A stretch of 64,000 bases of DNA from an uncultured Muribaculaceae bacterium (GTDB lineage: Bacteria; Bacteroidota; Bacteroidia; Bacteroidales; Muribaculaceae), in the NCBI GenBank assembly GCA_910578075.1, contig CAJTPK010000002.1:46479-110478 (forward strand), given 5' to 3'. Shown piece after piece: positions 18,478 through 35,436 of the stretch. How positions within the stretch are numbered: the first letter of the stretch is position 1; every line of letters begins with the position of its first letter. The position numbers and the translations under genes were made by a program. The notes under the pieces are model-generated. The model searched no databases and was not told the DNA's origin. It saw nothing but the letters and a program-made list of their open reading frames with translations.

Positions 18478-19890
18478 ATGAATCATGAGAATCGGAACAT
18501 AGAGCACAAGCGCATCTGGAAGGACGAATACCTGAAATGGGTATCCGGTTTTGCTAACGCGCAGGGTGGAAAGATTTATATTGGCATTGACGATGACTTA
18601 ACTATTGTTGGTGTAGAGAATCTCCATAAGCAGTTGGAGGATATTCCTAACAAGATTATCAACAATACAGGTGTATTTCCAGAGACCAATCATCTTACGA
18701 TGGAGGGCAAGGACGTTATTGAGATTGTTATCGAACCATGTGGAATGCCGATTTCTTATCGTGGCGTTTATTACTATCGTAGTGGTGCGACTAAACAAGA
18801 GTTTCGTGGGGCTGCTCTTCATCAGTTTCTTCTGAAAAAGATGGGATTGAATTGGGAAGACATTCCTTGTGATGGGTTTACGCTGGATGATATTGATGAC
18901 GGTGCGATTAATTATTTTTTGGATCACGCTATTGATGAGGGTCGAATGGATAACGAATCTCGTAAATCTGCCAAAGAAGATGTCCTATATAATTTAGGAC
19001 TTATTAAGGATGGAGTTCCAACAAACGGTGCAGTTCTGCTATTCGGAAAATATCCTCAACGCAGATTTGTAACCTCCAGTTTTAAGATTGGCAGGTTTGG
19101 TGCGGATGATGCAGACTTGTTAAGTCAAGACCAAATTGAAGGGAATCTTATTCAAATGACTGATAAGATAATGCAGGTGTTAAGCAGCAAGTATCTTATC
19201 CGTCCGATACATTATGAGGGATTGCAACGCAAAGAGCCATTGGAAATTCCTGAAGATGCTCTTCGTGAAATTATCTTCAATAGTATTGTACACAAACTCC
19301 AATTCGGCACATGGAATCAGATGAGTATCTACGATGACCATATTCGTTTATGGAATGAAGGTGTATTGCCTGAAGATTATACAGTAGAAACTCTAATGAG
19401 TAAGCACACATCCAAACCGCGTAATCCAAAGATGGCTCAGGTTTTCTACCGTGCCGGATTCATTGAGGCGTGGGGTCGCGGATACGAAAAGATAATGAAG
19501 GCTTTTGATAAAGCTAATCTTATGCGTCCGGAATTCACAGTTGAGCAGGGGGGTGTCACAGCCGTAATTTATCGTGAGATTTTCATGTCAATTAGAGGTG
19601 ATAAACACCCGATACAAACCGATATAAAATCGAACCAAAACTGGATCAAAACCGATACAGAATCGATACAGAACGATACAAAACCGATACAGAACCGAAC
19701 TAAATCTGAAGAGCGAACCATTATTTTAGGGGCAATCAAAAATAATCCGCTTATTACAATGGATGCTCTAAGTGATTTACTTAAGATAACTAAAAGTAGT
19801 GTCCAACGAAGATTAGATGCGCTTGTCAAAGAGGGGCGATTAAGACATATCGGACCGACAAAAGGAGGCTCTTGGGAAGTGATTGAATAA
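18478..19890 (+). CDS. AlbA_2/Schlafen-like divergent-AAA DNA-binding protein with C-terminal wHTH (often annotated 'RecG-like ATP-dependent DNA helicase domain')
   Basis: 470 aa. N-terminal NIEHKRIWKDEYLKWVSGFANAQGGKIYIGIDDD. A central HATPase_c_4-like region (NSIVHK...EAWGRGYEKI). A C-terminal HTH (KSSVQRRLDALVKEGRLRHIG). Confidence 0.65.
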   Translation: MNHENRNIEHKRIWKDEYLKWVSGFANAQGGKIYIGIDDDLTIVGVENLHKQLEDIPNKIINNTGVFPETNHLTMEGKDVIEIVIEPCGMPISYRGVYYYRSGATKQEFRGAALHQFLLKKMGLNWEDIPCDGFTLDDIDDGAINYFLDHAIDEGRMDNESRKSAKEDVLYNLGLIKDGVPTNGAVLLFGKYPQRRFVTSSFKIGRFGADDADLLSQDQIEGNLIQMTDKIMQVLSSKYLIRPIHYEGLQRKEPLEIPEDALREIIFNSIVHKLQFGTWNQMSIYDDHIRLWNEGVLPEDYTVETLMSKHTSKPRNPKMAQVFYRAGFIEAWGRGYEKIMKAFDKANLMRPEFTVEQGGVTAVIYREIFMSIRGDKHPIQTDIKSNQNWIKTDTESIQNDTKPIQNRTKSEERTIILGAIKNNPLITMDALSDLLKITKSSVQRRLDALVKEGRLRHIGPTKGGSWEVIE

Positions 19891-20340: not shown

Positions 20341-20904
20341 ATGGCACAGATCAACGATTTCCTTTCGCATATTGACTTTGAGGCGATGCGCGAGTATTGC
20401 ATGGCTAACGGCAAGACCGTCCGCTATGCAAAGGGAGATTGTTTTGCCGAAGTAGGACATGTCGGGAGATACGTTGGCTTCGTAAAATCGGGCTACTTCA
20501 AATATTGCGTACTGACATCAAAGGGCGATTATGCTGTCACGGGTTTTTCGTTTGCAGATGAATGTATTATGGATTTCACCCAGTCTTTTATCTTCGATAA
20601 GCCATCAAAAATTACAATAATCGCAGGTTGTGACTCCGAGGTCATGCAGGTTCCATTACGCACACTTCGTGATTTCATCACAAAGGATAATCCGGGTCTC
20701 ATACCTCACATGTCGGCAGTGGTCTTGGAAGAAGCGTATGGCCGTTATCTTCATCTCTATCAAAAATCGCCGACAGAGCGTTATCATGAACTTGTTGAAA
20801 AATATCCCGATGTCTTGAAGCAAGTAAAGCTTCGCGACATTGCCTCATATCTTCTCGTCTCGCCAATTCATCTTAGTCGCATCCGAAAGAAAATGGAAAA
20901 ATAG
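20341..20904 (+). CDS. Crp/Fnr-family transcriptional regulator
   Basis: 187 aa with a cNMP-binding-like beta-barrel and a C-terminal HTH (LRDIASYLLVSPIHLSRIRKK). Confidence 0.8.
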   Translation: MAQINDFLSHIDFEAMREYCMANGKTVRYAKGDCFAEVGHVGRYVGFVKSGYFKYCVLTSKGDYAVTGFSFADECIMDFTQSFIFDKPSKITIIAGCDSEVMQVPLRTLRDFITKDNPGLIPHMSAVVLEEAYGRYLHLYQKSPTERYHELVEKYPDVLKQVKLRDIASYLLVSPIHLSRIRKKMEK

Positions 20905-20984: not shown

Positions 20985-21671
20985 ATGAATATACTTATTA
21001 TAGGAGCGACCTCTGGAATTGGATATGAGTTGTGGAAGCATTATACCACGACTGGTAATACAGTTGCCATTACAGGACGACGGAATGAACTCCTGCAAAA
21101 ACAGATTAAAGACAACCCGGACAATACTGTTGCCTTTCAGTGTGATATTGCCGACTTGTCTTCGTTTGATTTTATGCTGAAAAACGTAATGTCAAAATTC
21201 GGGCATCTGGATTTGGCAATAATTTGTGCCGGAGTTGGAGAACTCAATCCAGAACTGGAATTATCAACTGAACTTGCAACCATTTCAGTAAATGTGAATG
21301 GATGGACTAACGCGGCTGATTTAATTTACAAAATCTTCGAGAATCAAAAATCAGGGCATCTTGTTGCAATAACTTCCGTTGGAGGATTACAACCTACGCC
21401 GATAGCTCCGTCTTATAGCGCATCGAAAGCTTTTCAGATAAACTATATCAAATCACTCCAGCAGAAGTCAAAGGGAACATCTCTTGTCGTTACTGAGATT
21501 CGCCCCGGACTTGTAAAGACACGAATGGCAAAGGGGGATGGGCTGTTTTGGGTAATGCCTTTGGATAGGGTCGTAAAGGAAATAGTAAAAGCAATCAACA
21601 AGAATAGAAGGCTTAAAATTGTTACCACTCGTTGGCGTATCATCAACTTTTTGCTTAAACATTTTGTGTAA
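20985..21671 (+). CDS. Short-chain dehydrogenase/reductase (SDR)
   Basis: IIGATSGIG (TGxxxGxG) and the catalytic YSASK. Confidence 0.85.
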   Translation: MNILIIGATSGIGYELWKHYTTTGNTVAITGRRNELLQKQIKDNPDNTVAFQCDIADLSSFDFMLKNVMSKFGHLDLAIICAGVGELNPELELSTELATISVNVNGWTNAADLIYKIFENQKSGHLVAITSVGGLQPTPIAPSYSASKAFQINYIKSLQQKSKGTSLVVTEIRPGLVKTRMAKGDGLFWVMPLDRVVKEIVKAINKNRRLKIVTTRWRIINFLLKHFV

Positions 21672-21696
21672 GTCGGAAACAGTTTTAGTTTCGATA

Positions 21697-21938
21697 ATAT
21701 TCATAAATCGGCATCTGTCAGGATATAACGGCGATTTTTATACGTGCAACCCACCCTAATGTCAAATATTCTTATTAACTTTGCGATAGGCTCTTATGAC
21801 AATCCGACAGAAATGCCTCCCGACCGAGCAAAAATAATTGGCATCTCCCGTCATCGCCTCTCCACCGACGGCGATGGTGTCACCACGCTTGTCGCTTTCC
21901 ACGGATGTCCGCTCCGCTGCCGTTACTGCCTCAATCCA
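21697..21938 (+). repeat. Direct repeat copy 1 (promoter plus 5' UTR plus first ~35-40 codons of the radical SAM gene)
   Basis: Near-identical to 29730-29971 (offset 8033 bp). There is one mismatch up to 21917, then partial similarity. Confidence 0.9.
21776..21783 (+). promoter_or_regulatory. Bacteroidetes-type -7 promoter box (TAACTTTG) inside the repeat
   Basis: The context cttattaactttgcg is the same extended context as the boxes upstream of etfB and the B12 riboswitch. It lies 30 nt upstream of the ATG at 21813. Confidence 0.5.
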
Positions 21939-22436
21939 CAATCGCTCGGCGACAGTAACCGTTTCAAGGAATACACTCCGCAGTCACTTTACGATGAAGT
22001 CAGAATTGATGAACTTTATTTCATCGCCACCAACGGTGGTGTGACTTTCGGCGGTGGAGAACCTGCATTACGACCTGATTTTATCCGCCGTTTCCGTGAG
22101 TTGTGTGGCCCGTCATGGAGACTGACATTAGAAACATCGCTGAATGTGCCGCAAGAAAATATTGAGGCTCTACTCCCGGCGGTAGATTCATGGATTATCG
22201 ACATCAAGGATATGGATGCGAACATTTATCGTCAATACACGGATAAGGATAATCCGCATGTGCTGTCCAATTTGCGCTTAATTGCTAAGGCTGACCGTCA
22301 GAAAGACTGCATGATACGGCTACCTCTTATCCCGGACTATAATACCGACACCGCCCGCGAGGTAAGCCGCAAGGCTCTCTCCGCACTTGGCTACTCCAAA
22401 TTCGATCTATTCACCTATCAAATCCGTAAACACTGA
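21813..22436 (+). CDS. Radical SAM enzyme, glycyl-radical-enzyme-activase-like (PflA/NrdG-like)
   Basis: STDGDGVTTLVAFHGCPLRCRYCLNPQS carries the CX3CX2C cluster motif in a PflA-like context. GGGEP follows downstream. The track start at 21744 is a GTG upstream of the promoter box, so I prefer the ATG at 21813. Confidence 0.8.
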   Translation: MPPDRAKIIGISRHRLSTDGDGVTTLVAFHGCPLRCRYCLNPQSLGDSNRFKEYTPQSLYDEVRIDELYFIATNGGVTFGGGEPALRPDFIRRFRELCGPSWRLTLETSLNVPQENIEALLPAVDSWIIDIKDMDANIYRQYTDKDNPHVLSNLRLIAKADRQKDCMIRLPLIPDYNTDTAREVSRKALSALGYSKFDLFTYQIRKH

Positions 22437-22438
22437 TT

Positions 22439-23230
22439 ATGGCACGAGGAAAGCAGACTTGCAAGATATTGAAGGAGATTCGTCGGCAGATAGCCGAAGC
22501 GAATGACATAGAGTTTGTAACGTCGGAGTGTCCCTACAAAGGTGATTGTCTCGGAACGTGTCCGAAATGCGAAGCCGAGGTGCGATATTTAGAGCAACAA
22601 CTTTGTAAGCGACAACTGATGGGTAAAGCCGTTGTGCTTGCCGGATTATCGGCCGGTATGATTGCATTATCAGGCTGCGGCAGTTCCTCAAGTCAGGCCA
22701 ACGACAGTTATAGCCTACAAGGTGAGCCTACGGAGTTGCTTGAGGGTGATGATGAATGGAATGTTGAAGGCGAATTGCCGGTGCAAGAAGTAATAGATTC
22801 AATTAGAGAAGCGGTGATGATGAAAGAGGGAGAGGTAGCCAATATTTCTGATGTTATTGTCACGCAGGGTGAAATGCCGGATGAATTACCTAAAAATCCA
22901 GATGACAGGGATATTTATAACTGTGTTGAACAAATGCCTGAATTTCCGGGAGGTAATGTTGCGATGTTGAATTTTATTGCCAAAAACTTGAAATATCCCA
23001 AAGAACAGTTGGACGCAGGTATTCAAGGAAGAGTTGTCATAAAATTCTATGTTGACACCTTTGGTAATGTTTGTGAGCCAAAGATTGTAAGAGGTAAGGA
23101 CTCTGCATTAGATAGAGAGGCTATCCGTCTTGTCAAATCTTTTCCTCAATTTAGTCCTGGAACACTTAACGGCAGGAAAGTCAATGTATGGTTTACGTTA
23201 CCCATAGTTTTCAAATTACCAGCAGAATAA
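22439..23230 (+). CDS. Membrane protein: five-Cys N-terminal cytoplasmic module, a TM/lipobox-like segment, and a TonB C-terminal domain
   Basis: N-terminus MARGKQTCKILKEIRRQIAEANDIEFVTSECPYKGDCLGTCPKCEAEVRYLEQQL. Hydrophobic AVVLAGLSAGMIALSGC. C-terminus EQMPEFPGG...GIQGRVVIKFYVDTFGNV...RKVNVWFTLPIVF (TonB_C-like). Confidence 0.75.
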   Translation: MARGKQTCKILKEIRRQIAEANDIEFVTSECPYKGDCLGTCPKCEAEVRYLEQQLCKRQLMGKAVVLAGLSAGMIALSGCGSSSSQANDSYSLQGEPTELLEGDDEWNVEGELPVQEVIDSIREAVMMKEGEVANISDVIVTQGEMPDELPKNPDDRDIYNCVEQMPEFPGGNVAMLNFIAKNLKYPKEQLDAGIQGRVVIKFYVDTFGNVCEPKIVRGKDSALDREAIRLVKSFPQFSPGTLNGRKVNVWFTLPIVFKLPAE

Positions 23231-23233
23231 AAT

Positions 23234-24175
23234 ATGGCACGAGGGAAGCAGACCTGCAAGATATTGAAAGAGATTCGTCGGCAGATAGCCGAGGCGAATG
23301 ACATAGAGTTTGTAACGTCGGAGTGTCGTTACAAAGGTGACTGTCTCGGAACCTGTCCGAAATGCGAAGCCGAGGTGCGATATTTGGAGCAACAGCTCCG
23401 CTCCCGTCAACTCATGGGTAAAGCCGTTGTGCTTGCTGGATTATCGGCAGGCGCAATAGCCATGCTTGCTCCTATTGCCGTGCAATCCCAAACTCCCGAC
23501 ACATCTTTGACAAAGGGTTATGTTGCTACTCAGGCAATGGCCGATACTGTCATGGTCAAAGGAGTTGTCCTTGATGGCGATACCTTAAAAGACGGCACTA
23601 TATCAAGAGAGCCTCTGGTAGGTGCTCCAATTATAAATCCACGAACAGGAATTGGTACCTGTTCAAATATTGATGGCAATTTTCAGATAGAGGTTTGCAA
23701 AGGCGACTCTTTGGAAATATCGTATATAGGGTATAATAAACAAAGAGTAATGGTTTTGGATGATACCCCTTTAGAAATAATATTAAATAGTGACGGATTG
23801 CGACTTACCGGAGATGTAGTAGTAATTGGTGCCATATCCGCCCCCGTTGACCGGGAGAATATGCTTGATTTGCATATTCTTGATGAAAATAAAAAGCCAA
23901 TCCCATATGAAGTTGTCACGATAGAACGTGTATATCTTGATGAAGATGGTGAGGAAGATTCTGACTTTCTTGACCCGGTATGGATTGAGGAAAAGGAAGT
24001 ATTCCGTTTTTATTGGAATGAGGATTCTGATTTTCAAGATGAAGATGGCAAGCCACTGAAAGAAGCAATATTGCGTATAGAGGTTGACGGTTACGACAAT
24101 CCCAAAACAATAAAAGTCAAATATCCCAAACGCAACACAAAGAAAACCATCAAGTTCAAACACAAAAGTGAATAA
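23234..24175 (+). CDS. Paralogous membrane protein: same five-Cys N-terminal module, a TM segment, and a CarboxypepD_reg-like domain
   Basis: The first ~215 nt are about 90% identical to 22439-22655. Downstream is VKGVVLDGDT...NIDGNFQIEVCKGDSLEISYIGYNKQRV. Confidence 0.7.
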   Translation: MARGKQTCKILKEIRRQIAEANDIEFVTSECRYKGDCLGTCPKCEAEVRYLEQQLRSRQLMGKAVVLAGLSAGAIAMLAPIAVQSQTPDTSLTKGYVATQAMADTVMVKGVVLDGDTLKDGTISREPLVGAPIINPRTGIGTCSNIDGNFQIEVCKGDSLEISYIGYNKQRVMVLDDTPLEIILNSDGLRLTGDVVVIGAISAPVDRENMLDLHILDENKKPIPYEVVTIERVYLDEDGEEDSDFLDPVWIEEKEVFRFYWNEDSDFQDEDGKPLKEAILRIEVDGYDNPKTIKVKYPKRNTKKTIKFKHKSE

Positions 24176-24180: not shown

Positions 24181-25353
24181 ATGAAGCTAAATAAATACAT
24201 ATCTTTTTATGCAACTCTGTTGATGTGTTTGATTTTAAATCTATCATCCTGCACAGTTGGCTATAAAAACGATGGCAAGGAAGTGACATGGCATACTTGG
24301 AATGAAGGGAGTGGGCATAACTCACGCAAAGTTGCCGCAGATCCCAACTCGTTTGAGGCTCTTGACGATGATTATGGACGCGATGCAGTACATGCTTTTT
24401 ATGAAGGAGATATCATTGAGGGTGCCGATGGAAGTTCATTCAAAACATTAGGAAATTGGTATGCATCCGATGATAAGCATGTCTATATTTCGGGGAATTT
24501 GATTAACGGAGCTGATGCCACCTCATTCAAAGTCCATCGCTACCGTTTAGGAGAAGACAAGAATGATTTTTACAATGATACCACCGCTCTCAATGTCAGG
24601 GACAAGGTTACTTTTGAAATCCTGAAATATTCATCGGGTAAAGAATCCAGTTATGCAAAGGATAAGTATAACGGATATTACATGAATGGCACTGTTATAC
24701 CGGATATTGATTATCATACATTTCATCCAGTCGATGTAGAATCATGGCAAGACCGTTGCTATGCCGCTGATAAAAATAAGGTCTACTATTATGGAGAAGT
24801 TGTGCCAATGGCTGACCCGGCGACATTCAAGGTCGTAGATTTTGCAATAGGTCAAGACAAGAACCGGGCCTATAAAGGCAAGGAGCCTACTCAAATAAAG
24901 GACTATACTAAATTAGAGAAGGTTGGGCCTGTTATGTACAATGACGGAACCAATATATATGACCTTAATTTCAAAATACTTCCGGATGTTGATGTCGCAA
25001 CATTCGAGCATATTGAGGATAATTGGTATAAAGACAAAAATAAGGTTTGGTGGATGTCTAAGCCTCTGCCGGGAGCAAATCCTCAAACCTTTATGCCTGT
25101 TGAAGTCTCATCATATAAATCTATATCTGGCAAAAAAGACCCATTCAGTGGAGGAGATTTCAACTTTGGAAAGGATGACAAATATGTTTTTTATCAAGAT
25201 TCAATTATTGTCGGAGCTGACCCTATGAGCTTTGAAAAGATTGATTTTCATGACGGAGATAGCTGGACCGTGTTTGACAAAAACAAAGTATATCAAGGGA
25301 AAGATTCTCCAAACAGGAGAAAGTATCTCAAAAAGAAATATGGTAAGCTATGA
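24181..25353 (+). CDS. DKNYY-repeat family protein (secreted or lipoprotein)
   Basis: Signal/lipobox-like LNLSSC. Repeated D(D/K)K(N/H)(K)VYY-type motifs (DDKHVYISG, DKNKVYYYGE, DKNKVWWMSK, DDKYVFYQD, DKNKVYQGK). Confidence 0.65.
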   Translation: MKLNKYISFYATLLMCLILNLSSCTVGYKNDGKEVTWHTWNEGSGHNSRKVAADPNSFEALDDDYGRDAVHAFYEGDIIEGADGSSFKTLGNWYASDDKHVYISGNLINGADATSFKVHRYRLGEDKNDFYNDTTALNVRDKVTFEILKYSSGKESSYAKDKYNGYYMNGTVIPDIDYHTFHPVDVESWQDRCYAADKNKVYYYGEVVPMADPATFKVVDFAIGQDKNRAYKGKEPTQIKDYTKLEKVGPVMYNDGTNIYDLNFKILPDVDVATFEHIEDNWYKDKNKVWWMSKPLPGANPQTFMPVEVSSYKSISGKKDPFSGGDFNFGKDDKYVFYQDSIIVGADPMSFEKIDFHDGDSWTVFDKNKVYQGKDSPNRRKYLKKKYGKL

Positions 25354-26150
25354 AAACCGTAAATGACAATGGTTTTAATCAGTCCATGAACAAGAAATCG
25401 GCTTTTCTGCGGTTCATGCGATATGTAGCTGTGGCATTAGTCTCAGTGACATTATTGTGTGTATTTATACTTAGTATTGGATTGGACGGATTCGATTTGG
25501 ATTTAGCTCTGTTTGCCTTTATTCTAATCTTTTCCAGCCTGTCTTTCATAACATTACCTATTATTGGATTTTGGATATATTCATTTGTCAAAGCCTTTAG
25601 ACGTCGAACAAAAACGGATAAGATTCTTCTGGGGTTCCACATTGTGGATCTGCTCCTGCTGGGAATAATTATATATCTTGCAAACCAACCACATCAGAAA
25701 TGTGATGCTGATATAATGGCTGAATATTATGAAGGTGAAAATGGGTTTTGGATGAGGAATATTGCTACCCGTTATCACAATATTCTCCCTGACAGCACTC
25801 GATTATGTTATGAGATTGATTATGAAAAATCTTACCCCTATGTTTTAAGCGAAGAGGATACAAAGAGGTTGAAAAGAGAGTTGAAAGATTGCGGTTGCAT
25901 AGGTATAGATATTGACAACTACTCCAGCAAAGGGTATTCAACTATCCGATTCCGGCGGATTGGAATGGGGATGTATTCTTACCGCTTCTACGATAAGCCC
26001 TTAACACTCCATGAGCAAGACAGCATCAATAATAACGAGTGCTTTATAGTCTATAATGATTCAACTGTGTTTGAATTTGGTGGTGGTGTCTTTGGAGTAC
26101 AGCACTTTGTCGGAAAAGAAGAATTTAGGGAAAAGTTACACAACTCATAA
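25350..26150 (+). CDS. Hypothetical membrane protein (3 TM plus soluble C-terminal domain)
   Basis: ATGA overlap with the upstream gene. Hydrophobic segments in residues ~25-110. Confidence 0.6.
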   Translation: MKTVNDNGFNQSMNKKSAFLRFMRYVAVALVSVTLLCVFILSIGLDGFDLDLALFAFILIFSSLSFITLPIIGFWIYSFVKAFRRRTKTDKILLGFHIVDLLLLGIIIYLANQPHQKCDADIMAEYYEGENGFWMRNIATRYHNILPDSTRLCYEIDYEKSYPYVLSEEDTKRLKRELKDCGCIGIDIDNYSSKGYSTIRFRRIGMGMYSYRFYDKPLTLHEQDSINNNECFIVYNDSTVFEFGGGVFGVQHFVGKEEFREKLHNS

Positions 26151-26162
26151 ATGGATTAGACA

Positions 26163-26339
26163 ATGGATAACATTGGCAAGCAACTGGCATCTGTGATAAT
26201 CGTATTCTGTGGTATGTTTACGACGATATTTTGCTTTGACTCTCCAAATATGATTACAAATCTGATATTGGTCTGCTCAATCATTTTAATATGCGGCGGC
26301 TTACTTTGGCTGCTTTGGCGGAAAGTAGGTAAGCGATGA
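26163..26339 (+). CDS. Unlisted 58-aa two-TM small protein
   Basis: MDNIGKQLASVIIVFCGMFTTIFCFDSPNMITNLILVCSIILICGGLLWLLWRKVGKR. The stop overlaps the next ATG (ATGA). It falls below the ORF-track length cutoff. Confidence 0.5.
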   Translation: MDNIGKQLASVIIVFCGMFTTIFCFDSPNMITNLILVCSIILICGGLLWLLWRKVGKR

Positions 26340-26635
26340 AACAGCTATACAAAATCAAATGGCTTATAATTGTCTTATCTGGAATAATGTGGGTTGTTTC
26401 ATTCGCAATATTATTTGCCGGAGGGACGGCTATACAAAACAGGATTGCGTTGGCTATAAATCTTGTCATGATTGTATTTCAGATAATGAATTGCTATCGG
26501 GCATTTGTTGTCAATCAGAAAGATGCCGCTATTGCACTTATCGTTTGCCTTCTAATCATACTTATGTTGATGTGGGCGACATATATCTGGGGTTGGAATT
26601 ATACAGTTAAGGCATTAACTATCGGATTTGAATAG
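26336..26635 (+). CDS. Hypothetical small membrane protein (99 aa, ~3 TM)
   Basis: Coupled start. Almost entirely hydrophobic helices. Confidence 0.6.
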   Translation: MKQLYKIKWLIIVLSGIMWVVSFAILFAGGTAIQNRIALAINLVMIVFQIMNCYRAFVVNQKDAAIALIVCLLIILMLMWATYIWGWNYTVKALTIGFE

Positions 26636-26636
26636 C

Positions 26637-26966
26637 ATGAAGGATAAGACGATAAACAATATTATACAAGCATGGTGGAATATTCAAATATTGGTATTCA
26701 TAACCCTGTTTATTCTTGCACCATATCGACCATTCCCGTTGTGGTGTATGATTTGCGCGTGTAGTCTTTTAGTAGTCTGTGCAAATTTAAGATTTCACCG
26801 CAGTTTATATGGCACTTTATCAAAGATTGTCCTTGTGTTATACACTATATCCTATGTTATTGTTGCCTTTATGTTTATCGGTGTTGCATCGCCTAAAATA
26901 TTGCTCGCCATTGTGATTGCTGTTGTAGGGCTAATAAATGTCTTGTGCTGTCTTAAATGGAACTGA
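26637..26966 (+). CDS. Hypothetical small membrane protein (~109 aa, 3 TM)
   Basis: The track start at 26628 is TTG. The ATG at 26637 lies 1 nt after the upstream stop. Confidence 0.6.
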   Translation: MKDKTINNIIQAWWNIQILVFITLFILAPYRPFPLWCMICACSLLVVCANLRFHRSLYGTLSKIVLVLYTISYVIVAFMFIGVASPKILLAIVIAVVGLINVLCCLKWN

Positions 26967-26973
26967 ATATGCT

Positions 26974-27522
26974 ATGGATAAGGTACACTTGATTATAAAA
27001 TGGCTATTTTATCTACTTGCCGCATTAGTGGTTATTGATTTATGGTGTATTGCCATATCAATAGTTTTTACTCTTGTCGGTATGAATGAAAAGTGCTTCC
27101 TGTTAGTCAAGATATTTTCAGCCATTCTCCCTGCTCTGATAATTTGGTCATACGCAGCTTTGTATATTATCATGTATCGAAGAACGGAATATGAAGATAT
27201 TATCTCGGTTGTATGGTCAAAAAGAATTAGGCTTATAATATGGTTGACATTTGGGTATTACAACACCTATCTTCTATCTCTATATTTCGTGAGATTCAGA
27301 TACTCACAGTATGAATTGTTGCAATATCGTGTAAATGTGATATATTCCGTCTTGTCAATGATCCCTATTCTGAATTTAATAGTATATTGGAGAGCAATTC
27401 ATGAATCTGAGATTCGATTATCGTTTATACAAGCTATAACCTTGTATTTTAAGGGAGAACTCATGTCGTATTTGATTAAGGAGAATTACTCACATCTTCT
27501 ACATCGTATAGAAAGCCAATAA
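26974..27522 (+). CDS. Hypothetical membrane protein (~182 aa, 5 TM)
   Basis: I prefer the start MDKVHLIIKWLFYLLAALVVIDLW because the duplicated fragment at 34006 begins at the equivalent ATG. Confidence 0.6.
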   Translation: MDKVHLIIKWLFYLLAALVVIDLWCIAISIVFTLVGMNEKCFLLVKIFSAILPALIIWSYAALYIIMYRRTEYEDIISVVWSKRIRLIIWLTFGYYNTYLLSLYFVRFRYSQYELLQYRVNVIYSVLSMIPILNLIVYWRAIHESEIRLSFIQAITLYFKGELMSYLIKENYSHLLHRIESQ

Positions 27523-27524
27523 AT

Positions 27525-28430
27525 ATGAAGTCTGACAGCAAATTATACCGATTCTTTCTTGGCGAGCGAGGAACAAGAGGTTTGCCAACTGTGGCTATCC
27601 TTATAGTTCTTGTACCGTTTTTGGTTTTCGGATTCTTTTTCAATAATAATAAACGGGAGAATTTGGCGAATAATCCGGTTTCTACAAGAGTGATAATCGA
27701 AGACATTTCAAGTGTTGGCAATTCATGGTCGATCTCCTACCATCTGAATATTGATGGGATTAGTTATAAAGGTAGTGGAAGACGATTAAAAGGGTTGGCC
27801 GTTGGTGATACTATTGGAGTCATGTATCAAAAGAATAATCCAGCCAATAATATGACCGTCTATGATTACTATGACCATAGTGACGATAAATGGCTTATTA
27901 TCATAATTCTTTTGGCTGCCGTTTTAGGCATATATCGTTGGTCAAAAGTAGGAAAAACCAATAACACGATTGAAATACCACAAGATAGAAATGCCAAATG
28001 TCAAATATACCGGACTTCAAAGCACTACATCTTCCTGACGGTTTATTATAGTATTGCAAGCAAACCAATCTATTTTCTATCACACGATTGTACTGATTCA
28101 GAATTTGAGAAAACTATGTTTGACTGTCTTGAAACAAGTGTTAAGAGCAGATATGAAGATATGAAAGCGTCTGAATTGATAAAAGCGATGAAGCAACAGT
28201 CTTGGCGGCAACTGTATCTGAACTCAACCATGTGCCTTGTAGAATATAGCAGTAAAGAATATCTTGGAGATAAATTGTCAATAGAAGTTGGCAAGAGGCG
28301 TAAAGATGGACGAGGTTTTGATTGGGACAGTAGTCGTTCCCGGTCATTCGATATGAAAGAGACCGACTGGCGACAAACAATAGGAATTATCCGAAACATT
28401 TTAGACCCGACAATCAATGAAACTGACTGA
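27525..28430 (+). CDS. Hypothetical membrane protein, DUF3592-like N-terminal module plus soluble C-terminal domain
   Basis: TM, then a beta-rich segment (VSTRVIIEDISSVGNSWSISYHLNIDGISYKGSG...IGVMYQKNNP), then TM, then ~150 aa soluble. Confidence 0.55.
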   Translation: MKSDSKLYRFFLGERGTRGLPTVAILIVLVPFLVFGFFFNNNKRENLANNPVSTRVIIEDISSVGNSWSISYHLNIDGISYKGSGRRLKGLAVGDTIGVMYQKNNPANNMTVYDYYDHSDDKWLIIIILLAAVLGIYRWSKVGKTNNTIEIPQDRNAKCQIYRTSKHYIFLTVYYSIASKPIYFLSHDCTDSEFEKTMFDCLETSVKSRYEDMKASELIKAMKQQSWRQLYLNSTMCLVEYSSKEYLGDKLSIEVGKRRKDGRGFDWDSSRSRSFDMKETDWRQTIGIIRNILDPTINETD

Positions 28431-28929
28431 TAAACGATTTTGGTACGGTACAAAAACGACCTATTATACCTCTTTTATATTTGCATTAAAAGATGCCCTC
28501 CTGTTCTCAATATCATGGGTGTTGGCAATTTGTATAATGTTATTTTCAATCTGCCTATTTATTCAAATGAATAATGGAGATACAATATCCGGTCAGGTCA
28601 TTACATTCGGATTACTCTTCATTCTCATTGTATTTGTTGTTTCAAACGGTATGTTTCTATATGATAATTGGCTTAAGCAATGTTACGTTATGCGAAAGAC
28701 AAAGAGACTTCTACCAGATAGTTGTGTTATTTTGGATACAAAGTATGACAATGTAAACAAGCAATACAAGATAATGCTGGATTATTCAGGAAAGCAGTTT
28801 GTGGTAACAGTAAATTTCCCTTTCTTTTATATATGTGAAAAAGGAACGCGTGCTCTTGGAGCATTGAATATTAATTCAAGAAAGTATTTTGCAAAGAATA
28901 AGTCGGCAATCGTGAATTATATGTCTTAA
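28417..28929 (+). CDS. Hypothetical membrane protein (170 aa)
   Basis: 14-nt overlap with the upstream gene. 3 TM plus a C-terminal beta-rich segment. Confidence 0.55.
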   Translation: MKLTDKRFWYGTKTTYYTSFIFALKDALLFSISWVLAICIMLFSICLFIQMNNGDTISGQVITFGLLFILIVFVVSNGMFLYDNWLKQCYVMRKTKRLLPDSCVILDTKYDNVNKQYKIMLDYSGKQFVVTVNFPFFYICEKGTRALGALNINSRKYFAKNKSAIVNYMS

Positions 28930-29267
28930 TGAAATGTTATATGGCACACTACAATACCCAATTTTGGTTATTATGGTTAATAGGGGCGGTTATGACTTTG
29001 TCAGTCTGCTTATGCTCATCATGGAGTGAAGATACATTGCTCCTTGCTGCGGCGTTTGCCCTGTCGCTGATTTCCATAGCCATTATCCATAAGTTCAGAA
29101 ACCATACTGCATTATGCAATATTCTATTTTGGTTGGGATATAATGCGTTGCTGTGTTACGGGCTGTTGTTCAAAAGCGAGGGTGGCGCAGGACTTACATG
29201 GTGGTTCTATCTGTTATGCCCTAATGTCTTACAGTTTATTTCCGATGCAATTATAGCGTATATCTAA
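28929..29267 (+). CDS. Hypothetical small membrane protein (112 aa, 4 TM)
   Basis: TAATG overlap with the upstream gene. Confidence 0.55.
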   Translation: MKCYMAHYNTQFWLLWLIGAVMTLSVCLCSSWSEDTLLLAAAFALSLISIAIIHKFRNHTALCNILFWLGYNALLCYGLLFKSEGGAGLTWWFYLLCPNVLQFISDAIIAYI

Positions 29268-29729
29268 TAATGAGTAGGTTGCGCTTTATGTATACAAAAC
29301 GGTTAACAGTGCTGTCTGCATCTTCAAATTTAACGGTTTCGGCTCTCTCAAGCGCCCATCTTTACTGAGTGCAAAGTTTGTAATTTTTGACTTAACCTCC
29401 AAACAAAATAGTTAAGATTTGGGGATTCGGTGCAGAAATACCTATATCAATTAGGGGATTTGGTGCAGATTTATTAAATCAAATTTGGGGATTCGGAGTA
29501 TTATGGGTAACGTTCTGTGAAAAATTCTCTTCACGAGTGAACCAACGTTACCTTATATATACAAAGGATTTACGCAAAGATGGCAATATAACTTACCTCC
29601 CGGCATACATGACACAATTTCTATAAATTACCTGCATTTTCTGCATTATCCGCATTTTGGGACAAAAGTCTATCTGTGAAATGTCAGTAAGAAAAAATGG
29701 CTCTGTTGATAGCGGATTATTGGGGTGTG

Positions 29730-29971
29730 ATATTCATAAATCGGCATCTGTCAGGATATAACGGCGATTTTTATACGTGCAACCCACCCTAATGTCAAAT
29801 ATTCTTATTAACTTTGCGATAGGCTCTTATGACAATCCGACAGAAATGCCTCCCGACCGAGCAAAAATAATTGGCATCTCCCGTCATCGCCTCTCCACCG
29901 ACGGCGATGGTGTGACCACGCTTGTCGCTTTCCACGGATGTCCGCTCCGCGACCTTTACTGCCTGAATCCG
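29730..29971 (+). repeat. Direct repeat copy 2 (promoter plus radical SAM 5' end)
   Basis: See 21697-21938. The TAACTTTG box is at 29809-29816. Confidence 0.9.
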
Positions 29972-30007
29972 AACTATTATTTTCAGGGAAGGAGGGTTGC
30001 AAGATGA
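29846..30007 (+). pseudogene. Truncated radical SAM gene remnant (cluster motif destroyed), possibly co-opted as a leader ORF
   Basis: Identical through ...VAFHGCPLR, then DLYCLNPNYYFQGRRVAR*. CPLRCRYC has become CPLRDLYC. The stop overlaps the next ATG (ATGA at 30004-30007). Confidence 0.8.
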
Positions 30008-31360
30008 AACCGATATGGTACATAATTGGTCTTGCCTGTTTTCTAATCTCTGCAATAGCAAGAATGGCAAACTCTATCTCAGATGTGTTAGTTGCAGTTG
30101 GCATTATCGCAGCGATTGGTGTGCTGATTTGGCTATATGAACAAGGTTATATAAAAATCAATTATCGAGTCAAGGAGATAGTTAAAGCCATTTTCAAGTG
30201 GGTTATCATTATCGCAGCCATTTTATATATTGTCTGTTTGATATGTTTTGTCGGATATAAAGCTATAGGAGGAGACGACTATGTTGGCTTGATCGTCATA
30301 GCCTTGGCGGGAGGAATATTTGGCGTGTCGTATTACTTGACACGTTGGCGCAGGTGGTGGATTAAATTCCTGAGAACATTTCTTCGGAAAGATCAGATGA
30401 GCGCCCTTGACTTGAAGTTTGGAGCTGACAGTTATGAAGAATATGATTGCAATAGCGGTGTCAGATACTGCCTCCGTCCGAAAGAAGGCGTATTTATAGG
30501 AACCACTCGCATATTCATATCACCTGATACTCTCGATGATTCCATGAATGAACGGTTAAGGAGATTTGACAATATGCTTCGGGAAAGTGGCATCGAGAAC
30601 ACACTCAACGTAGATTACACCGATGGTTGTATTTATGCGGACGTGTCGGTAACAGTAGATTGCCGACGAATGAATGTTGAAAAACAGACACTCTTACGCA
30701 ATGCGTTTATCTACCTTAAAGACAGTAATTATCAAGGCGATTACTTTGGGAAATATGTTGGAGAATACGGAACAATATTATTTCAATCAACAGCAGTCGA
30801 AATTATCCGTGCTGTAAGGGTAAAACCGCGTGAGGAATATTATATTTATCCCGACAGTGGTTTTCAATCGGAAGATGCGTATCTATTTATCGGAAGATGC
30901 GTATCTATTTATTGAATACTATCCGGACTGGACTAACGGTGAATACACACTCATAGCTGAAAAAGAGTTTTTCAGTCGATGGCGTAAGCGTACAGAATTT
31001 GATAATAAAGATCAAGCATATACCGATTTTGATGTATCTTCAACCGCCTATTTTGCTGCGATTGAAAATGGAGATAAAAAGGAGCAAAAATACAGTCGGG
31101 AAGACATAGAGAAGGCGGCTTTATGGTTAATCCGATACGATGAAGTTGATTATATTAAAGAATTGCTGTCAAATCCACATGATGAAACAGAATATTGGGC
31201 TGCCCGCTTTTTCCACGATGTCATTCCTGAACTTGCTGAAGCTATGGCTCAAACCCTTGTGGATAACTGCGACAAGCCGGTAATAGCAGCAAACGCCAAA
31301 CGACTGTTGGCTCAGTGGAGAAAAAATAAACAAGAAAAAGATAGCACTACGATAAGATGA
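30004..31360 (+). pseudogene. Membrane protein gene (4 TM plus large soluble domain) split by a 22-bp tandem duplication
   Basis: SEDAYLFI is encoded twice in two frames. Removing one copy of cggaagatgcgtatctatttat fuses 30004-30915 with 30830-31360 into a 444-aa ORF. The downstream track ORF starts with GTG. Confidence 0.7.
30869..30912 (+). repeat. Perfect 22-bp tandem duplication (2 copies)
   Basis: cggaagatgcgtatctatttat at 30869-30890 and again at 30891-30912. Confidence 0.95.
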
Positions 31361-32277
31361 AAGAATCTCTCCGTTATAAAGTATGCCTATGGATAGTGTG
31401 GGTGCAACTCGCACTCATACCTACTGTATATCTTATGATGTGGGTGGTCGATGGTACACCTTATATCTGGCGATGGAATCTTTTGTCTTGGGCTATCTTT
31501 ACAGGCTATCTGATTGGCTTCATCGCTTTGCCATTAAGTCGTGGTCTTGACAAACCTAAACTCTTAAAATGGTGGTTGCGGATTGATTTTGTAGCCTCAA
31601 TACTACTTTTTATACCTTTCTATTTCACGTTCATGGCGTCAAAGGCTAATTTTGTATCTGAAAGAGGTAAGTATATTCTATTTACAACAGGTGGAGGAAT
31701 GGCAAAGCCGACACTTAGGTTAGGAAAATCATATGGGTTATTTATCAAAGAATTATATAATTCAGATGCTGTGGCATTTGATATAAATGCTGAAGATTGG
31801 TTTGTTAATGAAGATTATGGTTATAGCAGCCTAAAAACTACTTACGATACTTATAAAAGTATCCATGTGTTTCCGATTGACAGTTCAGCTTATCACCAAC
31901 ATAATAATGTTATTGACACACAGATTGATAGCATATTTCATGCAAACATAATCGGTTATGACAAAATGGAATTTGTTATGCCGAAAGATTTTTCAACAAT
32001 CGAATACCGAGACAGCTCCAGTATTGAATATCACAGATCCGACTATATTCAGTTAGCAGAAATAGAGTATCGTTCATTCGGAAAAGGAAATCTTTTGGAT
32101 TCAGTATTGATAACCCTTTCTGTATCAAAAAATGACATATTATCGATAACTGACTCAGATACATTATTGGTGGAGAGAGTTGAAACGGAGAGACAAATAA
32201 AGATCCCGAAAGAATCTGTGCCGTGGATGTCTCCGACTGAAGTACATCGGTTCTTGAACGATTTGAAAAGGAGGTAA
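31357..32277 (+). CDS. Hypothetical membrane protein (306 aa; 4 TM plus soluble domain)
   Basis: ATGA overlap with the upstream ORF. Confidence 0.6.
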   Translation: MKESLRYKVCLWIVWVQLALIPTVYLMMWVVDGTPYIWRWNLLSWAIFTGYLIGFIALPLSRGLDKPKLLKWWLRIDFVASILLFIPFYFTFMASKANFVSERGKYILFTTGGGMAKPTLRLGKSYGLFIKELYNSDAVAFDINAEDWFVNEDYGYSSLKTTYDTYKSIHVFPIDSSAYHQHNNVIDTQIDSIFHANIIGYDKMEFVMPKDFSTIEYRDSSSIEYHRSDYIQLAEIEYRSFGKGNLLDSVLITLSVSKNDILSITDSDTLLVERVETERQIKIPKESVPWMSPTEVHRFLNDLKRR

Positions 32278-32280
32278 GCG

Positions 32281-32727
32281 ATGAAAACTGACGGATATAT
32301 TTTCAAAGATAGTTGGCTGGAATATATTTTATATGGCATATTATTGTGCCCTTTTATATGTCTATGGGTCAGTCTTGACACATTCCCATTTGGAGACAAA
32401 GGAGCTGTCGGATTATTTATTTTCATAATGGCTTTCATTATGATTTTGACCTTCTCTATATGGGGCATTGTTAAACATCCGAATCGACTGATAATTGGCA
32501 ACGATGGAATACATTATTATTGCCGTAGAGTTACATTGTCAAACAATTCATCGTTTTGGATTGATAATTATAAGCTTTATTCATGGGAGAAAATTCAAGG
32601 GTTCTATTTCGAATGGATGATGGCGCGTGGTGTTATGTCACATCGTTATCTTGTTCTTGAACATGAACATGATAAGGCAGCTTTTATACGATTAAACGAC
32701 TTAACCGGAAAAAATATGAGTATATAA
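32281..32727 (+). CDS. Hypothetical membrane protein (2 TM plus bPH-like domain), probably frameshifted at an A6 tract
   Basis: 148 aa as written. A +1 A at 32709-32714 would extend it to 32888, adding a C-terminal TM. Confidence 0.55.
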   Translation: MKTDGYIFKDSWLEYILYGILLCPFICLWVSLDTFPFGDKGAVGLFIFIMAFIMILTFSIWGIVKHPNRLIIGNDGIHYYCRRVTLSNNSSFWIDNYKLYSWEKIQGFYFEWMMARGVMSHRYLVLEHEHDKAAFIRLNDLTGKNMSI

Positions 32728-32887
32728 GTGCTATTGAGGAATGTAGCGATGGAAAATGTTTGTTAAACAGGGCAAAATATAACGAGAACAGAAAGATACG
32801 AAATAGATCATTGTGGAAATACTACATATTTCCGTTATTGATAGGAATAGCCCTTGCAATGTTACTGAATAAATTCGGAGTCAGATA

Positions 32888-33439
32888 ATGGAAAGCATAT
32901 TCCGGTATATTGTAATAATAGCCATAGCCTTTATGATAGGCAAGGAGGTGTTTCGGTCAATCAGGCAAAAGTCTGTTGACCGGTGTATTCTTGCGATAAT
33001 CGTGCTGTTTGGAATTGTGATTTTCATGAGCCGTAGTTTTTTAGTTTCTATTAGGAGTTATGGTTATCTCGAAATATGTATAACTGTCCTCGTTATCTTG
33101 GCATATCTTTTAGAGAGGTCAACGAAAATCTACAAACTGATTAGAGGTATGTCGATAGCAAGTCTTTTAGTGGCCATATCAGTCTTTACGTATTGGAATA
33201 TAAAGGCTCAGAAGATAACTGGTGAAATTGACATCGTAGAGTTGAATGGATTTACAATGGGGAGATTTGAGGAAGTTTTGTTCAAGTATGATGGTGAGCC
33301 ATTTAGTCGTCATTGCAGTTTGAAAGACTATTCAAGCAACGATGATTTGATGGATCGCTATAATGTGAAGTTAACGCTCAAACCACTTTACCCTCACATT
33401 GTCAAGTTAGAGTCTATTACCCTAATCCCTAAAGAATGA
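32888..33439 (+). CDS. Hypothetical membrane protein (183 aa; 4 TM plus soluble domain)
   Basis: ATG start; ATGA overlap with the next gene. Confidence 0.6.
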   Translation: MESIFRYIVIIAIAFMIGKEVFRSIRQKSVDRCILAIIVLFGIVIFMSRSFLVSIRSYGYLEICITVLVILAYLLERSTKIYKLIRGMSIASLLVAISVFTYWNIKAQKITGEIDIVELNGFTMGRFEEVLFKYDGEPFSRHCSLKDYSSNDDLMDRYNVKLTLKPLYPHIVKLESITLIPKE

Positions 33440-33996
33440 TTACGCATAATAACCAATATATAGCAAAAGAATCGCTGACGTTTCCACTGTTGGTAACGGT
33501 GATGTTTGGCGTGTCTTTATATGCTTCTATCTATGCACCTAAATTTTGGTGCATATTTGGTGCGGTCTTTTTCGGTTTGGGTGTGGCTGTATATGCCTAT
33601 AAATATATCCGCTATGGTAGAACCACGCTAATAATTTACAGCGAGGGAATAACAATAAAGGACTGGGGCAAGACCAAAACATATAATTGGTGGTGGGATA
33701 TAGTGAGCGTCTATACCAATTGGAACGTATCTTATTTTGCTCGTTTCGTGGAAAGATGGCTAAGAATCAAAACTTCAGTAAATGGTGAACAGTTTGAGTT
33801 CCACGATATTTGCCTATCCGATCTGTATTGCCGAAGCAAAAGTGTTCGTAAGGCGATTGAAAAATATGCAGGGCCGTCTCGTTTCGATTATGAGGCTTCA
33901 CAAGAAACAAAAAGTTATGTGTCTAAGATAGTGCTGCTGGCATCGATAGTCGCTGTTATTGGAATATTCATTTGCTTAACCTATTTTTCAGAGTGA
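33436..33996 (+). CDS. Hypothetical membrane protein (2 TM plus bPH-like domain plus C-terminal TM)
   Basis: 186 aa. Its architecture parallels the repaired 32281 gene. Confidence 0.6.
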   Translation: MITHNNQYIAKESLTFPLLVTVMFGVSLYASIYAPKFWCIFGAVFFGLGVAVYAYKYIRYGRTTLIIYSEGITIKDWGKTKTYNWWWDIVSVYTNWNVSYFARFVERWLRIKTSVNGEQFEFHDICLSDLYCRSKSVRKAIEKYAGPSRFDYEASQETKSYVSKIVLLASIVAVIGIFICLTYFSE

Positions 33997-35430: not shown

Positions 35431-35436
35431 CCGATG

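Follow-up and report, generated by a model that had tools for sequence, protein, structure and literature searches.

A PflA-like radical SAM gene paired with a five-cysteine module ahead of predicted Sec signal peptides in gut Bacteroidales

The DNA considered here, 64,000 nucleotides (nt) of chromosomal sequence from an uncultured Muribaculaceae bacterium (GCA_910578075.1, contig CAJTPK010000002.1; the window), contains a compact cassette in which a gene for a small radical S-adenosylmethionine (SAM) enzyme is followed by two open reading frames (ORFs), ORF2 and ORF3. Their predicted products begin with the same 60-residue module, which contains five cysteines, and carry different periplasmic domains behind it. 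Judged by its recurrence in other genomes, the cassette is conserved and widespread in gut Bacteroidales, and it is apparently undescribed. Its parts are the following (aa, amino acids; NTE, N-terminal extension).

21697-21812, forward strand: promoter and leader of the cassette, containing TAACTTTG (21776-21783); part of a 241-nt repeat
21813-22436, forward strand: radical SAM gene, ATG start, 207 aa, containing DGDGVTTLVAFHGCPLRCRYCLNP; PF04055 and Fer4_12 matches
22439-23230, forward strand: ORF2, 263 aa, starting 2 nt past the radical SAM stop codon
22439-22618, forward strand: five-Cys module, copy 1 (ORF2 residues 1-60), predicted to be cytoplasmic
22619-22678, forward strand: n- and h-region of the ORF2 signal peptide, ending in the lipobox L-S-G-C80, a predicted signal peptidase II site
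22679-23230, forward strand: predicted mature lipoprotein of ORF2, with a Ser/Gly/acidic linker and a TonB C-terminal domain (residues 183-260)
23234-24175, forward strand: ORF3, 313 aa, starting 3 nt past the ORF2 stop codon
23234-23413, forward strand: five-Cys module, copy 2 (ORF3 residues 1-60), from the sequence, the repeat and BLASTP
23414-23488, forward strand: n- and h-region of the ORF3 signal peptide, ending in A-V-Q-S/Q86, a predicted signal peptidase I site with Gln at +1
23489-24175, forward strand: predicted mature periplasmic protein of ORF3, with a CarboxypepD_reg-like (SusC NTE-like) domain (124-185) and a C-terminal region to which no domain is assigned

Homologues of the radical SAM enzyme begin at the same methionine as the 207-aa form, which is therefore the right one, and both a 230-aa form starting at GTG and a 225-aa gene call are unlikely. 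The only Pfam matches of the protein are Radical_SAM (PF04055, E = 6e-18) and Fer4_12. Its CX3CX2C cluster motif is preceded by a glycine-rich DGxG (DGDGVTTLVAFHGCPLRCRYC), and the alignment of homologues shows the cluster ligands Cys32, Cys36 and Cys39, a GGGEP SAM motif and an invariant extra Cys98, which together with Cys166 makes up all the cysteines outside the cluster motif. A ferredoxin insert, a SPASM/twitch domain and a PqqD-like recognition element (RRE) of ribosomally synthesized and posttranslationally modified peptides (RiPPs) were sought with Pfam, NCBIfam and the alignment, and none is present in the 207 residues. The best NCBIfam models are those of glycyl-radical enzyme (GRE) activases, all under their curated cut-offs, i.e., TIGR02494 (PflC-PflE type) with 134.4 bits against 174.35, TIGR02493 (PflA) with 100.2 against 231.75, and the NrdG2 model with 44.4 against 131.15. 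TIGR02494 aligns in two stretches, of which the one after the cluster motif begins at profile position 102, and among solved structures E. coli PflA (3C8F/8FO0) comes nearest, with E = 4e-21 and a colinear match over 18-182. The original prediction, which was made from the letters of this DNA, had described a PflA/NrdG-like enzyme of about 207 aa with no GRE nearby, and both statements hold. By its sequence, the enzyme is PflA-like, with the motifs and the core of a GRE activase and scores below those that the curated models demand; no ORF of at least 400 aa in the 64-kb window matches a Gly_radical or PFL (pyruvate formate-lyase) model, and no GRE was found among the conserved neighbours of the radical SAM-module loci described below.

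The 5' ends of ORF2 and ORF3 form a 219-nt direct repeat (22438-22656 and 23233-23451) with 91% identity, in line with the predicted identity of about 90% in two ORFs that follow the enzyme gene at distances of 2 and 3 nt. The predicted cysteines at positions 8, 31, 37, 41 and 44 are likewise present in both module copies, and copy 1 has an additional Cys56. By our reading of the alignment, about 10 of the 11 differences within the first 55 codons are synonymous. BLASTP aligns the two proteins with 76 of 95 residues identical (E = 4e-49), and beyond that there is no similarity.

The pairing of enzyme and module was followed in both directions. A module scan of species-representative genomes gave at least 453 true matches, and 79 loci from such genomes, together with the window, formed a module-seeded set that contains 75 assessable loci after the removal of five that are cut by contig ends. 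A radical SAM gene is adjacent in 71 of the 75, on the same strand and within 1.9 kb; according to phmmer, it is complete and upstream on the same strand in 66 loci, downstream in four, and frameshifted but adjacent in one. The gap between the two genes is at most 15 nt in 52 loci, one extra gene, often DMP19-like, lies between them in 13, and only the loci L066 and L076 to L078 have no radical SAM gene within 6 kb. When the enzyme was used as the seed, 78 of 80 metagenome loci (enzyme identity of 57 to 94%) had a module gene directly downstream; the exceptions are a deletion derivative (L118) and a locus with too little downstream flank to judge (L119). Each radical SAM gene is accompanied by one to five module genes. 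The adjacency spans several Bacteroidales families with gaps of 2 to 15 nt, and in Prevotellaceae and Odoribacter, where the gene order is altered, the genes are still found together. Members of the module family occur in Muribaculaceae, Bacteroides, Prevotella/Segatella, Barnesiella, and Odoribacter; cultured strains that carry it include Duncaniella muris DSM 103720, Bacteroides graminisolvens DSM 19988, Segatella copri HDE06, and Palleniella intestinalis PINT. A module that usually occurs apart from a radical SAM gene, which the original prediction had named as an argument against its own reading, is the opposite of what these loci show. The counts support the view that the radical SAM enzyme and the five-Cys module are a functionally coupled and mutually dependent gene pair.

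Individual loci of these sets show further forms. In L066 (5929-6348), a decay form, the first 24 radical SAM codons are fused in frame to the module gene and the remaining enzyme gene has been lost. In L118 (3965-5039), genes of the downstream array described below abut the radical SAM gene with no module gene between them. L058 is filed as "uncultured Staphylococcus sp." yet carries a typical Bacteroidales cassette, and this metagenome-assembled genome (MAG) is probably mislabelled or chimeric.

All five cysteines of the module are kept in 206 of 208 distinct homologues, and 144 representatives show no variation at C8, C31, C37, C41, C44 and G39 and hardly any at G35. When 1.84 billion representatives were searched with a module profile, 2,848 clusters at 50% identity were found (E <= 0.001), and in nearly all of the 150 clusters listed among them the module is N-terminal, at residues 1-73. 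The module belongs to no Pfam or NCBIfam family, its sole match being a weak one to a Zn-ribbon (E of about 0.02), and it has no sequence match in the PDB, no match in PADLOC, and, even at E <= 10, none to zf-HC2 or any other anti-sigma family. Between species, the module has a proportion of nonsynonymous differences (pN) of 0.064 and a proportion of synonymous differences (pS) of 0.61, with synonymous sites near saturation; the corresponding values of the radical SAM gene are 0.16 and 0.68. On these values the module is under extreme purifying selection at the protein level, and with a contrast of 0.61 to 0.064 its conservation cannot be put down to recent horizontal transfer or to an element acting at the DNA level. 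Homogenisation among the paralogues of one genome is only partial (pS of 0.33). The DNA identity is 0.89 between copies of the T class (module proteins with a TonB domain) and the C class (module proteins with an NTE-like, CarboxypepD_reg domain) within a genome, and 0.83 between T-type copies of different genomes. No class-specific residue distinguishes the two types. The comparison suggests that the copies are interchangeable and evolve in concert within the genome, as would be expected if all of them must fit one resident enzyme.

The AlphaFold2 (AF2) model of the module (66 residues, 97 sequences; pLDDT of 78.9, pTM of 0.66) is a helical hairpin, in which helices 3-21 and 42-60 are joined by a 20-residue Cys/Gly loop (22-41) of lower confidence; an earlier model that included the hydrophobic tail was discarded (pLDDT of 58). 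A Foldseek comparison of the model with the PDB found no neighbour with E < 1. A module variant in L075 (5486-5995) has lost the whole Cys loop, roughly residues 17-50, and has kept the start of the N-terminal helix, the signal peptide, and the lipobox; it adjoins an intact module gene and the radical SAM gene.

Behind the module follows the hydrophobic segment that the original prediction had taken for a transmembrane link between cytoplasmic chemistry and periplasmic domains. A motif survey of 208 distinct module proteins, including 109 of the TonB (T) class and 80 of the NTE (C) class, indicates a different role. A lipobox-type cysteine directly after the hydrophobic core was found in 98 of the 109 TonB-class proteins, in 88 of them at residue 80 as in the LSGC of ORF2, and the stretch after this cysteine is rich in Ser, Gly and Thr with almost no acidic residues. 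Only 2 of the 80 NTE-class proteins have such a cysteine. Instead, 69 of the 80 have the pattern [ASGTV]x[ASGT]/Q (e.g., SEA/Q, SQA/Q, VQS/Q) with the glutamine exactly at residue 86, a pattern that just 11 of the 109 TonB-class proteins show, at scattered positions; the two motifs are thus nearly mutually exclusive between the cargo classes. The documented Q-rule of Bacteroidetes describes just such a Gln at position +1 of sites for signal peptidase I (PMC5837995, PMC10653852). The proteins have what defines a Sec signal peptide, i.e., a positively charged n-region, a hydrophobic core, and then either a lipobox Cys or small-x-small/Gln, with sixty conserved residues ahead of the core. The hydrophobic segment therefore looks like a cleavable signal peptide and the module, as inferred from the motifs, like a 60-residue cytoplasmic extension of its n-region. 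Since both peptidase motifs are position-fixed and class-specific, processing can be argued for both cargo classes; the TonB class would become a periplasm-facing lipoprotein with a TonB C-terminal domain and the NTE class a soluble NTE-like protein, and module and cargo would probably be separated after export. Of the earlier view, the hydrophobic segment thus remains and the lasting link probably does not. The lipobox of copy 1 is real, and as part of a signal peptide whose n-region is extended by the module it is no longer topologically odd, as had been thought.

The extended signal peptide regions (ESPR) of autotransporters are about 25 residues long, not Cys-rich, and without a link to an enzyme gene. 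The module resembles them as a conserved N-terminal extension ahead of an otherwise normal Sec signal peptide, but it is a 60-residue domain with a dedicated radical SAM enzyme of its own.

Pfam and NCBIfam bear out the predicted divergence of the two proteins into a TonB C-terminal and a CarboxypepD_reg-like domain. ORF2 matches TonB_C (PF03544) at residues 183-260 (E = 1.6e-18) and TIGR01352 with 48.3 bits against a cut-off of 27.1, and its translation contains the YP motif ("KYP") and the conserved Trp of the domain. ORF3 matches CarbopepD_reg_2 (PF13715) at residues 124-185 (E = 2.3e-10) and positions 3-86 of the 981 positions of the SusC/RagA model TIGR04056 (E = 8e-19; 67 bits against a cut-off of 368); no Plug or barrel domain was found by Pfam or NCBIfam, so that only the NTE-like part of SusC is present. 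Among the 144 module representatives, TonB_C was detected in 74, CarbopepD_reg_2 in 43, and both in six; in Segatella copri the two are fused in one protein, and such fusions argue that both domains act in one process. ORF2 does not look like a conventional TonB energy transducer: a stable ExbBD-coupled anchor is apparently missing, its hydrophobic segment lacks His and ends in a lipobox, and a look through the annotated ORFs of the window and the conserved neighbours gave neither exbB nor exbD. In terms of their domains, the cargoes correspond to the two partners of the TonB-SusC contact in free form. SusC does not function without its NTE, for which a part in TonB specificity has also been proposed (PMC7782687); TonB7 and TonB11 of B. 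thetaiotaomicron combine PF13715 with TonB_C (PMC10350073). The window proteins share with these Bacteroides TonB paralogues and the SusC NTE the TonB_C domain with its YP motif and the PF13715 domain, which in SusC precedes the TonB box, and differ in the lipobox or signal peptidase I site, the five-Cys extension and the tie to a radical SAM enzyme, of which the extension and the tie are mentioned in neither study (PMC10350073, PMC7782687).

The cassette lies in an island of about 18.4-34 kb that consists of a Schlafen/AlbA-type gene, a Crp-like regulator, a short-chain dehydrogenase/reductase (SDR) gene, the cassette itself, a DKNYY protein and an array of small proteins. One flank is a SusC/SusD locus with an extracytoplasmic function (ECF) sigma/FecR pair, a 1-deoxy-D-xylulose-5-phosphate (DXP) synthase gene and a glycoside hydrolase family 43 (GH43) gene; this pair, the only one in the window, lies at 5795-7357 and adjoins the SusC gene. 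The other flank carries a cobalamin riboswitch, B12 transport genes and cob genes. The further features of the island are the following.

20341-20904, forward strand: Crp/Fnr-like (cyclic nucleotide monophosphate-binding) regulator gene, weak PF00027 match
24181-29267, forward strand: first stretch of a variable, low-GC, packed array, with the DKNYY protein followed by small membrane or hypothetical proteins of no Pfam family
29730-29970, forward strand: second copy of the cassette promoter and of the first approximately 44 radical SAM codons (direct repeat D1, 98%)
29938-33996, forward strand: second stretch of the array, behind the duplicated promoter, with membrane or hypothetical proteins

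The array (24181-33996) comprises about 15 to 17 tightly packed or overlapping same-strand genes with a GC content of 35 to 39%, compared to 43 to 46% for the radical SAM and module genes. Several of its families recur downstream of other cassettes, e.g., the 58-aa and the 306-aa proteins in 29 loci each, and the homologues of the 306-aa protein (31357-32277) are downstream and on the same strand in 28 of 29 related loci; DMP19-like and DUF4304 proteins occupy the array position elsewhere. Homologues of the Crp-like regulator occur in 20 of 159 related loci, with 19 of the 20 placements upstream, and are hence frequent but not universal neighbours. The TAACTTTG of the cassette leader agrees with the Bacteroides -7 motif TAnnTTTG. 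The 241-nt direct repeat (21697-21937 and 29730-29970, 98%) has its second copy 8 kb downstream, where it precedes an ORF for a 325-aa membrane protein and breaks at the CX3CX2C motif. Fragments of the 5' end of the radical SAM gene, all ending near CX3CX2C, were found in five other loci, i.e., L001 (102-245), L003 (in a fused ORF, 8803-9561), L007 (7145-7270), L023 (3659-3769), and L066.

The context of the cassette differs between genomes. In L162 (1-2203; assembly GCA_949067285), this cassette and its array recur, ORF3 being identical, but a HisKA/response-regulator pair takes the place that the Crp-like and SDR genes have in the window, and the homology to the window (compared over 20985-21830) begins only about 55 nt upstream of the radical SAM ATG. 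In Segatella copri HDE06 (L160, NZ_CP137558.1, 3124-5612), a module-TonB gene and a module-CarbopepD-TonB fusion precede the radical SAM gene, the enzyme is 53% identical, and the cassette is located on a 93-kb replicon, adjoining relaxase, MobC, integrase and transposase genes; the RefSeq names of these proteins are "energy transducer TonB" and "radical SAM protein". The differing contexts imply that the block moves and recombines. The array resembles immunity-gene arrays, without a recombinase among the window ORFs scanned, and an assignment to the rAID-1 type, in which a XerD-family recombinase heads a low-GC array of immunity genes, was rejected for that reason, though a low-GC array is present; the rAID-1 paper (bioRxiv 10.1101/471110) mentions neither radical SAM nor TonB. 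A known defence system was not recognised either, since no cassette or array protein has a PADLOC match. A phage-borne cassette was considered and dropped, because a search of IMG/VR gave no module; two enzyme matches labelled "Bacteriophage sp." are unannotated, and the one inspected (H3) is an UNVERIFIED 10-kb fecal contig. Rfam gave no match to an upstream cis-regulatory RNA.

Further observations concern the island and its flanks. At its left edge, 18478-19890 encodes a protein with Schlafen/AlbA_2, HATPase_c_4 and winged helix-turn-helix (wHTH) domains that matches the PADLOC models for proteins associated with prokaryotic Argonaute (pAgo) and for SIR2-type proteins (best E = 2.7e-13). 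Bacteroidales mostly lack Shine-Dalgarno sequences, and a recurring Shine-Dalgarno-like junction within the array, (A)AGGAGGTAAGCGATGA(AA) or a near variant at about 26320-26342 and 32262-32284, is therefore unusual; it occurs in different frames and gives some of the upstream proteins an RKGGKR or RKVGKR C-terminal tail, which is also present on array proteins of L013 and L016. The cobalamin riboswitch (35424-35500 onward, 47.5 bits, clipped by the search range) is situated just upstream of a TonB-dependent receptor gene (35561-37663), which is followed by B12-type ABC transport and cobyric/cobyrinic acid amidotransferase genes.

Taken together, the cassette would comprise an activase-type radical SAM enzyme and a dedicated protein partner, and it falls short of what defines GRE/activase pairs, RiPP systems, and zinc-binding anti-sigma (ZAS) factors. 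In the reading that we consider best, with a probability of roughly 40%, the five-Cys module is the dedicated substrate or partner of the enzyme and exerts control over how periplasmic modulators of TonB-SusC coupling are made. The radical SAM gene would form a tightly packed transcription unit with one to five genes whose products are exported, and each exported precursor would consist of the cytoplasmic 60-residue five-Cys domain, an ordinary Sec signal-peptide core, and a cargo, which is either a lipoprotein with a TonB C-terminal domain (lipobox Cys80) or a soluble SusC-NTE-like protein (cut before Gln86). The enzyme may bind loop 31-41 (Gly39, Cys31/37/41/44) as PflA does the glycine loop of pyruvate formate-lyase, and may abstract a hydrogen atom there, which would lead to a glycyl radical, an epimerised residue, with Cys98 as a possible hydrogen donor, or a cross-link. 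This modification, or binding alone, could govern the export, cleavage or stability of the precursor, or what becomes of the signal-peptide fragment that is left behind. Once released, the cargoes, having no ExbBD-coupled anchor, would modulate TonB-SusC coupling from within the periplasm, probably as competitors. In E. coli, TonB-dependent transport is inhibited by periplasmic fragments of TonB, and by analogy a role of the cargoes as modulators or competitors is plausible.

The original prediction had offered the module either as a substrate of the enzyme or as an Fe-S/Zn partner domain; the functional coupling common to both is supported (71 of 75 and 78 of 80 loci). Between the two, we tentatively favour the substrate, at somewhat less than even odds and with interaction and catalysis as steps that we infer, because every close relative of the enzyme that has been characterised targets a loop of a protein, because one enzyme gene serves one to five module genes, because the module must sit in cis on every exported paralogue, and because the most conserved Gly and Cys residues lie in a flexible loop. 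With the GRE activases (PflA with PFL or GrcA, NrdG with NrdD) the cassette has in common a small radical SAM enzyme with one cluster, whose N-terminus reads DGxG...GCxxxCxxC and whose core is colinear with PflA, as well as a protein partner that is genetically dedicated to it and carries an invariant Gly within a flexible loop; it differs in that the partner is a 60-residue five-Cys domain on signal peptides, with neither a glycyl-radical domain nor RVxG[FWY], and in that an enzyme below all curated cut-offs serves one to five partner genes. RiPP maturases of the radical SAM type with tandem precursor genes, e.g., in SCIFF/ranthipeptide systems, provide another parallel, one radical SAM gene standing beside several paralogues with a conserved Cys-rich N-terminus and a variable remainder. 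Here, however, SPASM/twitch and RRE domains are absent, the "precursors" are exported proteins of 260 to 340 aa with folded periplasmic domains, and the cysteines are located in the conserved and not in the variable part.

Several points weigh against this reading. The loci L076 to L078 contain intact module genes, at position 6001 and in ordinary chromosomal contexts, without a radical SAM gene within 6 kb; the MAG of L078 has one on another contig (L050). The module loop does not contain the RVxG[FWY] glycyl-radical motif, a domain of 60 residues would be a poor shield for a radical, and the enzyme lacks the SPASM/twitch clusters of known Cys-crosslinking radical SAM enzymes. A structural Zn or Fe-S site would explain five invariant cysteines at least equally well. 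Cleavage is read from motifs, and no predictor is trained on n-regions of 60 residues. The proposed competitor role in the periplasm draws on analogy and on the work with E. coli TonB fragments.

Among the alternatives, it is unlikely that a Zn-binding module tethers the enzyme in an inactive state to the membrane in the manner of an anti-sigma factor, with the TonB_C or NTE-like domain as the sensor, until a signal-peptidase cut followed by intramembrane proteolysis frees the enzyme for another substrate, according to the logic of RsiV and sigma-V. The spacing of the module (Cys8...Cys37-x3-Cys41-x2-Cys44) resembles that of the ZAS domain of RsrA (Cys11...His37-x3-Cys41-x2-Cys44), and in the AF2 model Cys8 is on helix 1 and the CxxC at the start of helix 2, but the module is devoid of the helix that ZAS domains have between the first ligand and HxxxCxxC, neither zf-HC2 nor another anti-sigma family was matched at E <= 10, and no anti-sigma structure is among the Foldseek or HMMER matches in the PDB. 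Several module proteins per enzyme, each "sensing" something different, would make sense for a tether, yet no alternative substrate of the enzyme is encoded in the conserved core. Lipoprotein processing by Lgt and LspA is normally constitutive, which is a poor fit with a conditional cleavage of the T class, although signal peptidase has been documented as the site-1 protease of an anti-sigma factor (PMC4183432, PMC6066255). The gene order, in which the effector comes first and its membrane partner follows within a few nt, and the N-in topology are reminiscent of sigma/anti-sigma pairs. ZAS factors and RsiV-type regulated proteolysis thus share with the cassette an N-in single-pass topology, a partner gene just upstream, a Cys/His...Hx3Cx2C pattern close in spacing to the Cys...Cx3Cx2C of the module, and the precedent of signal peptidase as the first cut; in the cassette, by contrast, the upstream gene encodes a radical SAM enzyme and no sigma factor, and the bound partner would be an enzyme. 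Membership of the module in the ZAS family itself was rejected, its motif being Cx3Cx2C and not Hx3Cx2C, with no match to PF13490 and none in the PDB by sequence or fold.

Less probable still is a module that serves as an electron-transfer or auxiliary-cluster domain in trans, with an Fe-S (or Zn) site of its own, for an enzyme whose real substrate lies elsewhere. The two-stretch alignment of TIGR02494 is consistent with the absence of a ferredoxin-like insert, an assignment that is our own reading, and the module could make up for it with five invariant cysteines including a CX3CX2C; the weak Zn-ribbon similarity is likewise compatible with metal binding. However, PflA and NrdG function without such a domain, and the cysteine spacing is not the CX2CX2CX3CP of ferredoxins. 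As an electron donor, the module would have no need to be placed in cis on every exported paralogue, yet nearly all the listed clusters have it at the N-terminus, and no other candidate substrate is conserved in the neighbourhood.

The two-way linkage makes it very unlikely that the enzyme activates a GRE encoded elsewhere and stands beside module genes by chance. Its sequence family is that of the GRE activases, public sources name its close homologues no more precisely than "radical SAM protein" or, by automatic annotation, "pyruvate formate lyase activating enzyme", and a relative in Enterococcus gilvus with 33% identity adjoins hypD; but the adjacency persists from 94% down to 57% enzyme identity, across several families, with gaps of 2 to 15 nt and despite the changed gene order in Prevotellaceae and Odoribacter, and the enzyme scores below every curated activase cut-off. 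That the true start is the internal Met61 and the 60 codons ahead of it form a conserved element of the DNA or RNA, e.g., a recombination site, is hardly credible: although M61-G-K-AVVLAGLSAG...SGC of the window would by itself be a textbook lipoprotein signal peptide and the 5' block of the module is a DNA repeat, residue 61 is A, S, M, L or another residue in homologues and hence no conserved internal start, the pS and pN values given above denote a translated, constrained protein, and no Rfam family matches the block.

In the libraries searched, the pairing of radical SAM enzyme and module turned up in no family model, no defence-system model, no solved structure and no paper, and the literature on radical SAM enzymes in connection with TonB, Bacteroidales or lipoproteins yielded nothing relevant. 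A TIGRFAM entry "radical SAM-associated putative lipoprotein", mentioned with reserve in the original prediction, did not materialise: no such model matches any of the three proteins in NCBIfam release 20 at E <= 0.01, where ORF2 and ORF3 have only TonB_Cterm/MxcH and SusC N-terminal matches.

The system is real, widespread, and uncharacterised. If the module is indeed the substrate or partner of the enzyme, it would extend the activase-type radical SAM enzymes, so far tied to GREs, to a new class of substrate or partner, in a clean two-component system. To our knowledge, the module would be the first folded, enzyme-linked domain to be embedded in the n-region of cleavable Sec signal peptides. 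Somewhat doubtful, but worth stating, is the view that the radical modification of this five-Cys signal-peptide domain acts as an anaerobiosis- or redox-gated switch on export or on the leftover membrane fragment, which would make the cassette a post-translational device of a kind not recognised before. The cargo domains correspond to both halves of the TonB-SusC contact, which drives the uptake of glycans and vitamins in gut Bacteroidales, and antibacterial proteins, too, make use of SusCD transporters (PMC11467351). TonB C-terminal and NTE-like domains set free in the periplasm could regulate the uptake of nutrients or the susceptibility to toxins that exploit SusCD, and a switch of the kind outlined, if true, would tune TonB-dependent uptake, and possibly the entry of SusCD-imported toxins, in gut Bacteroidales.

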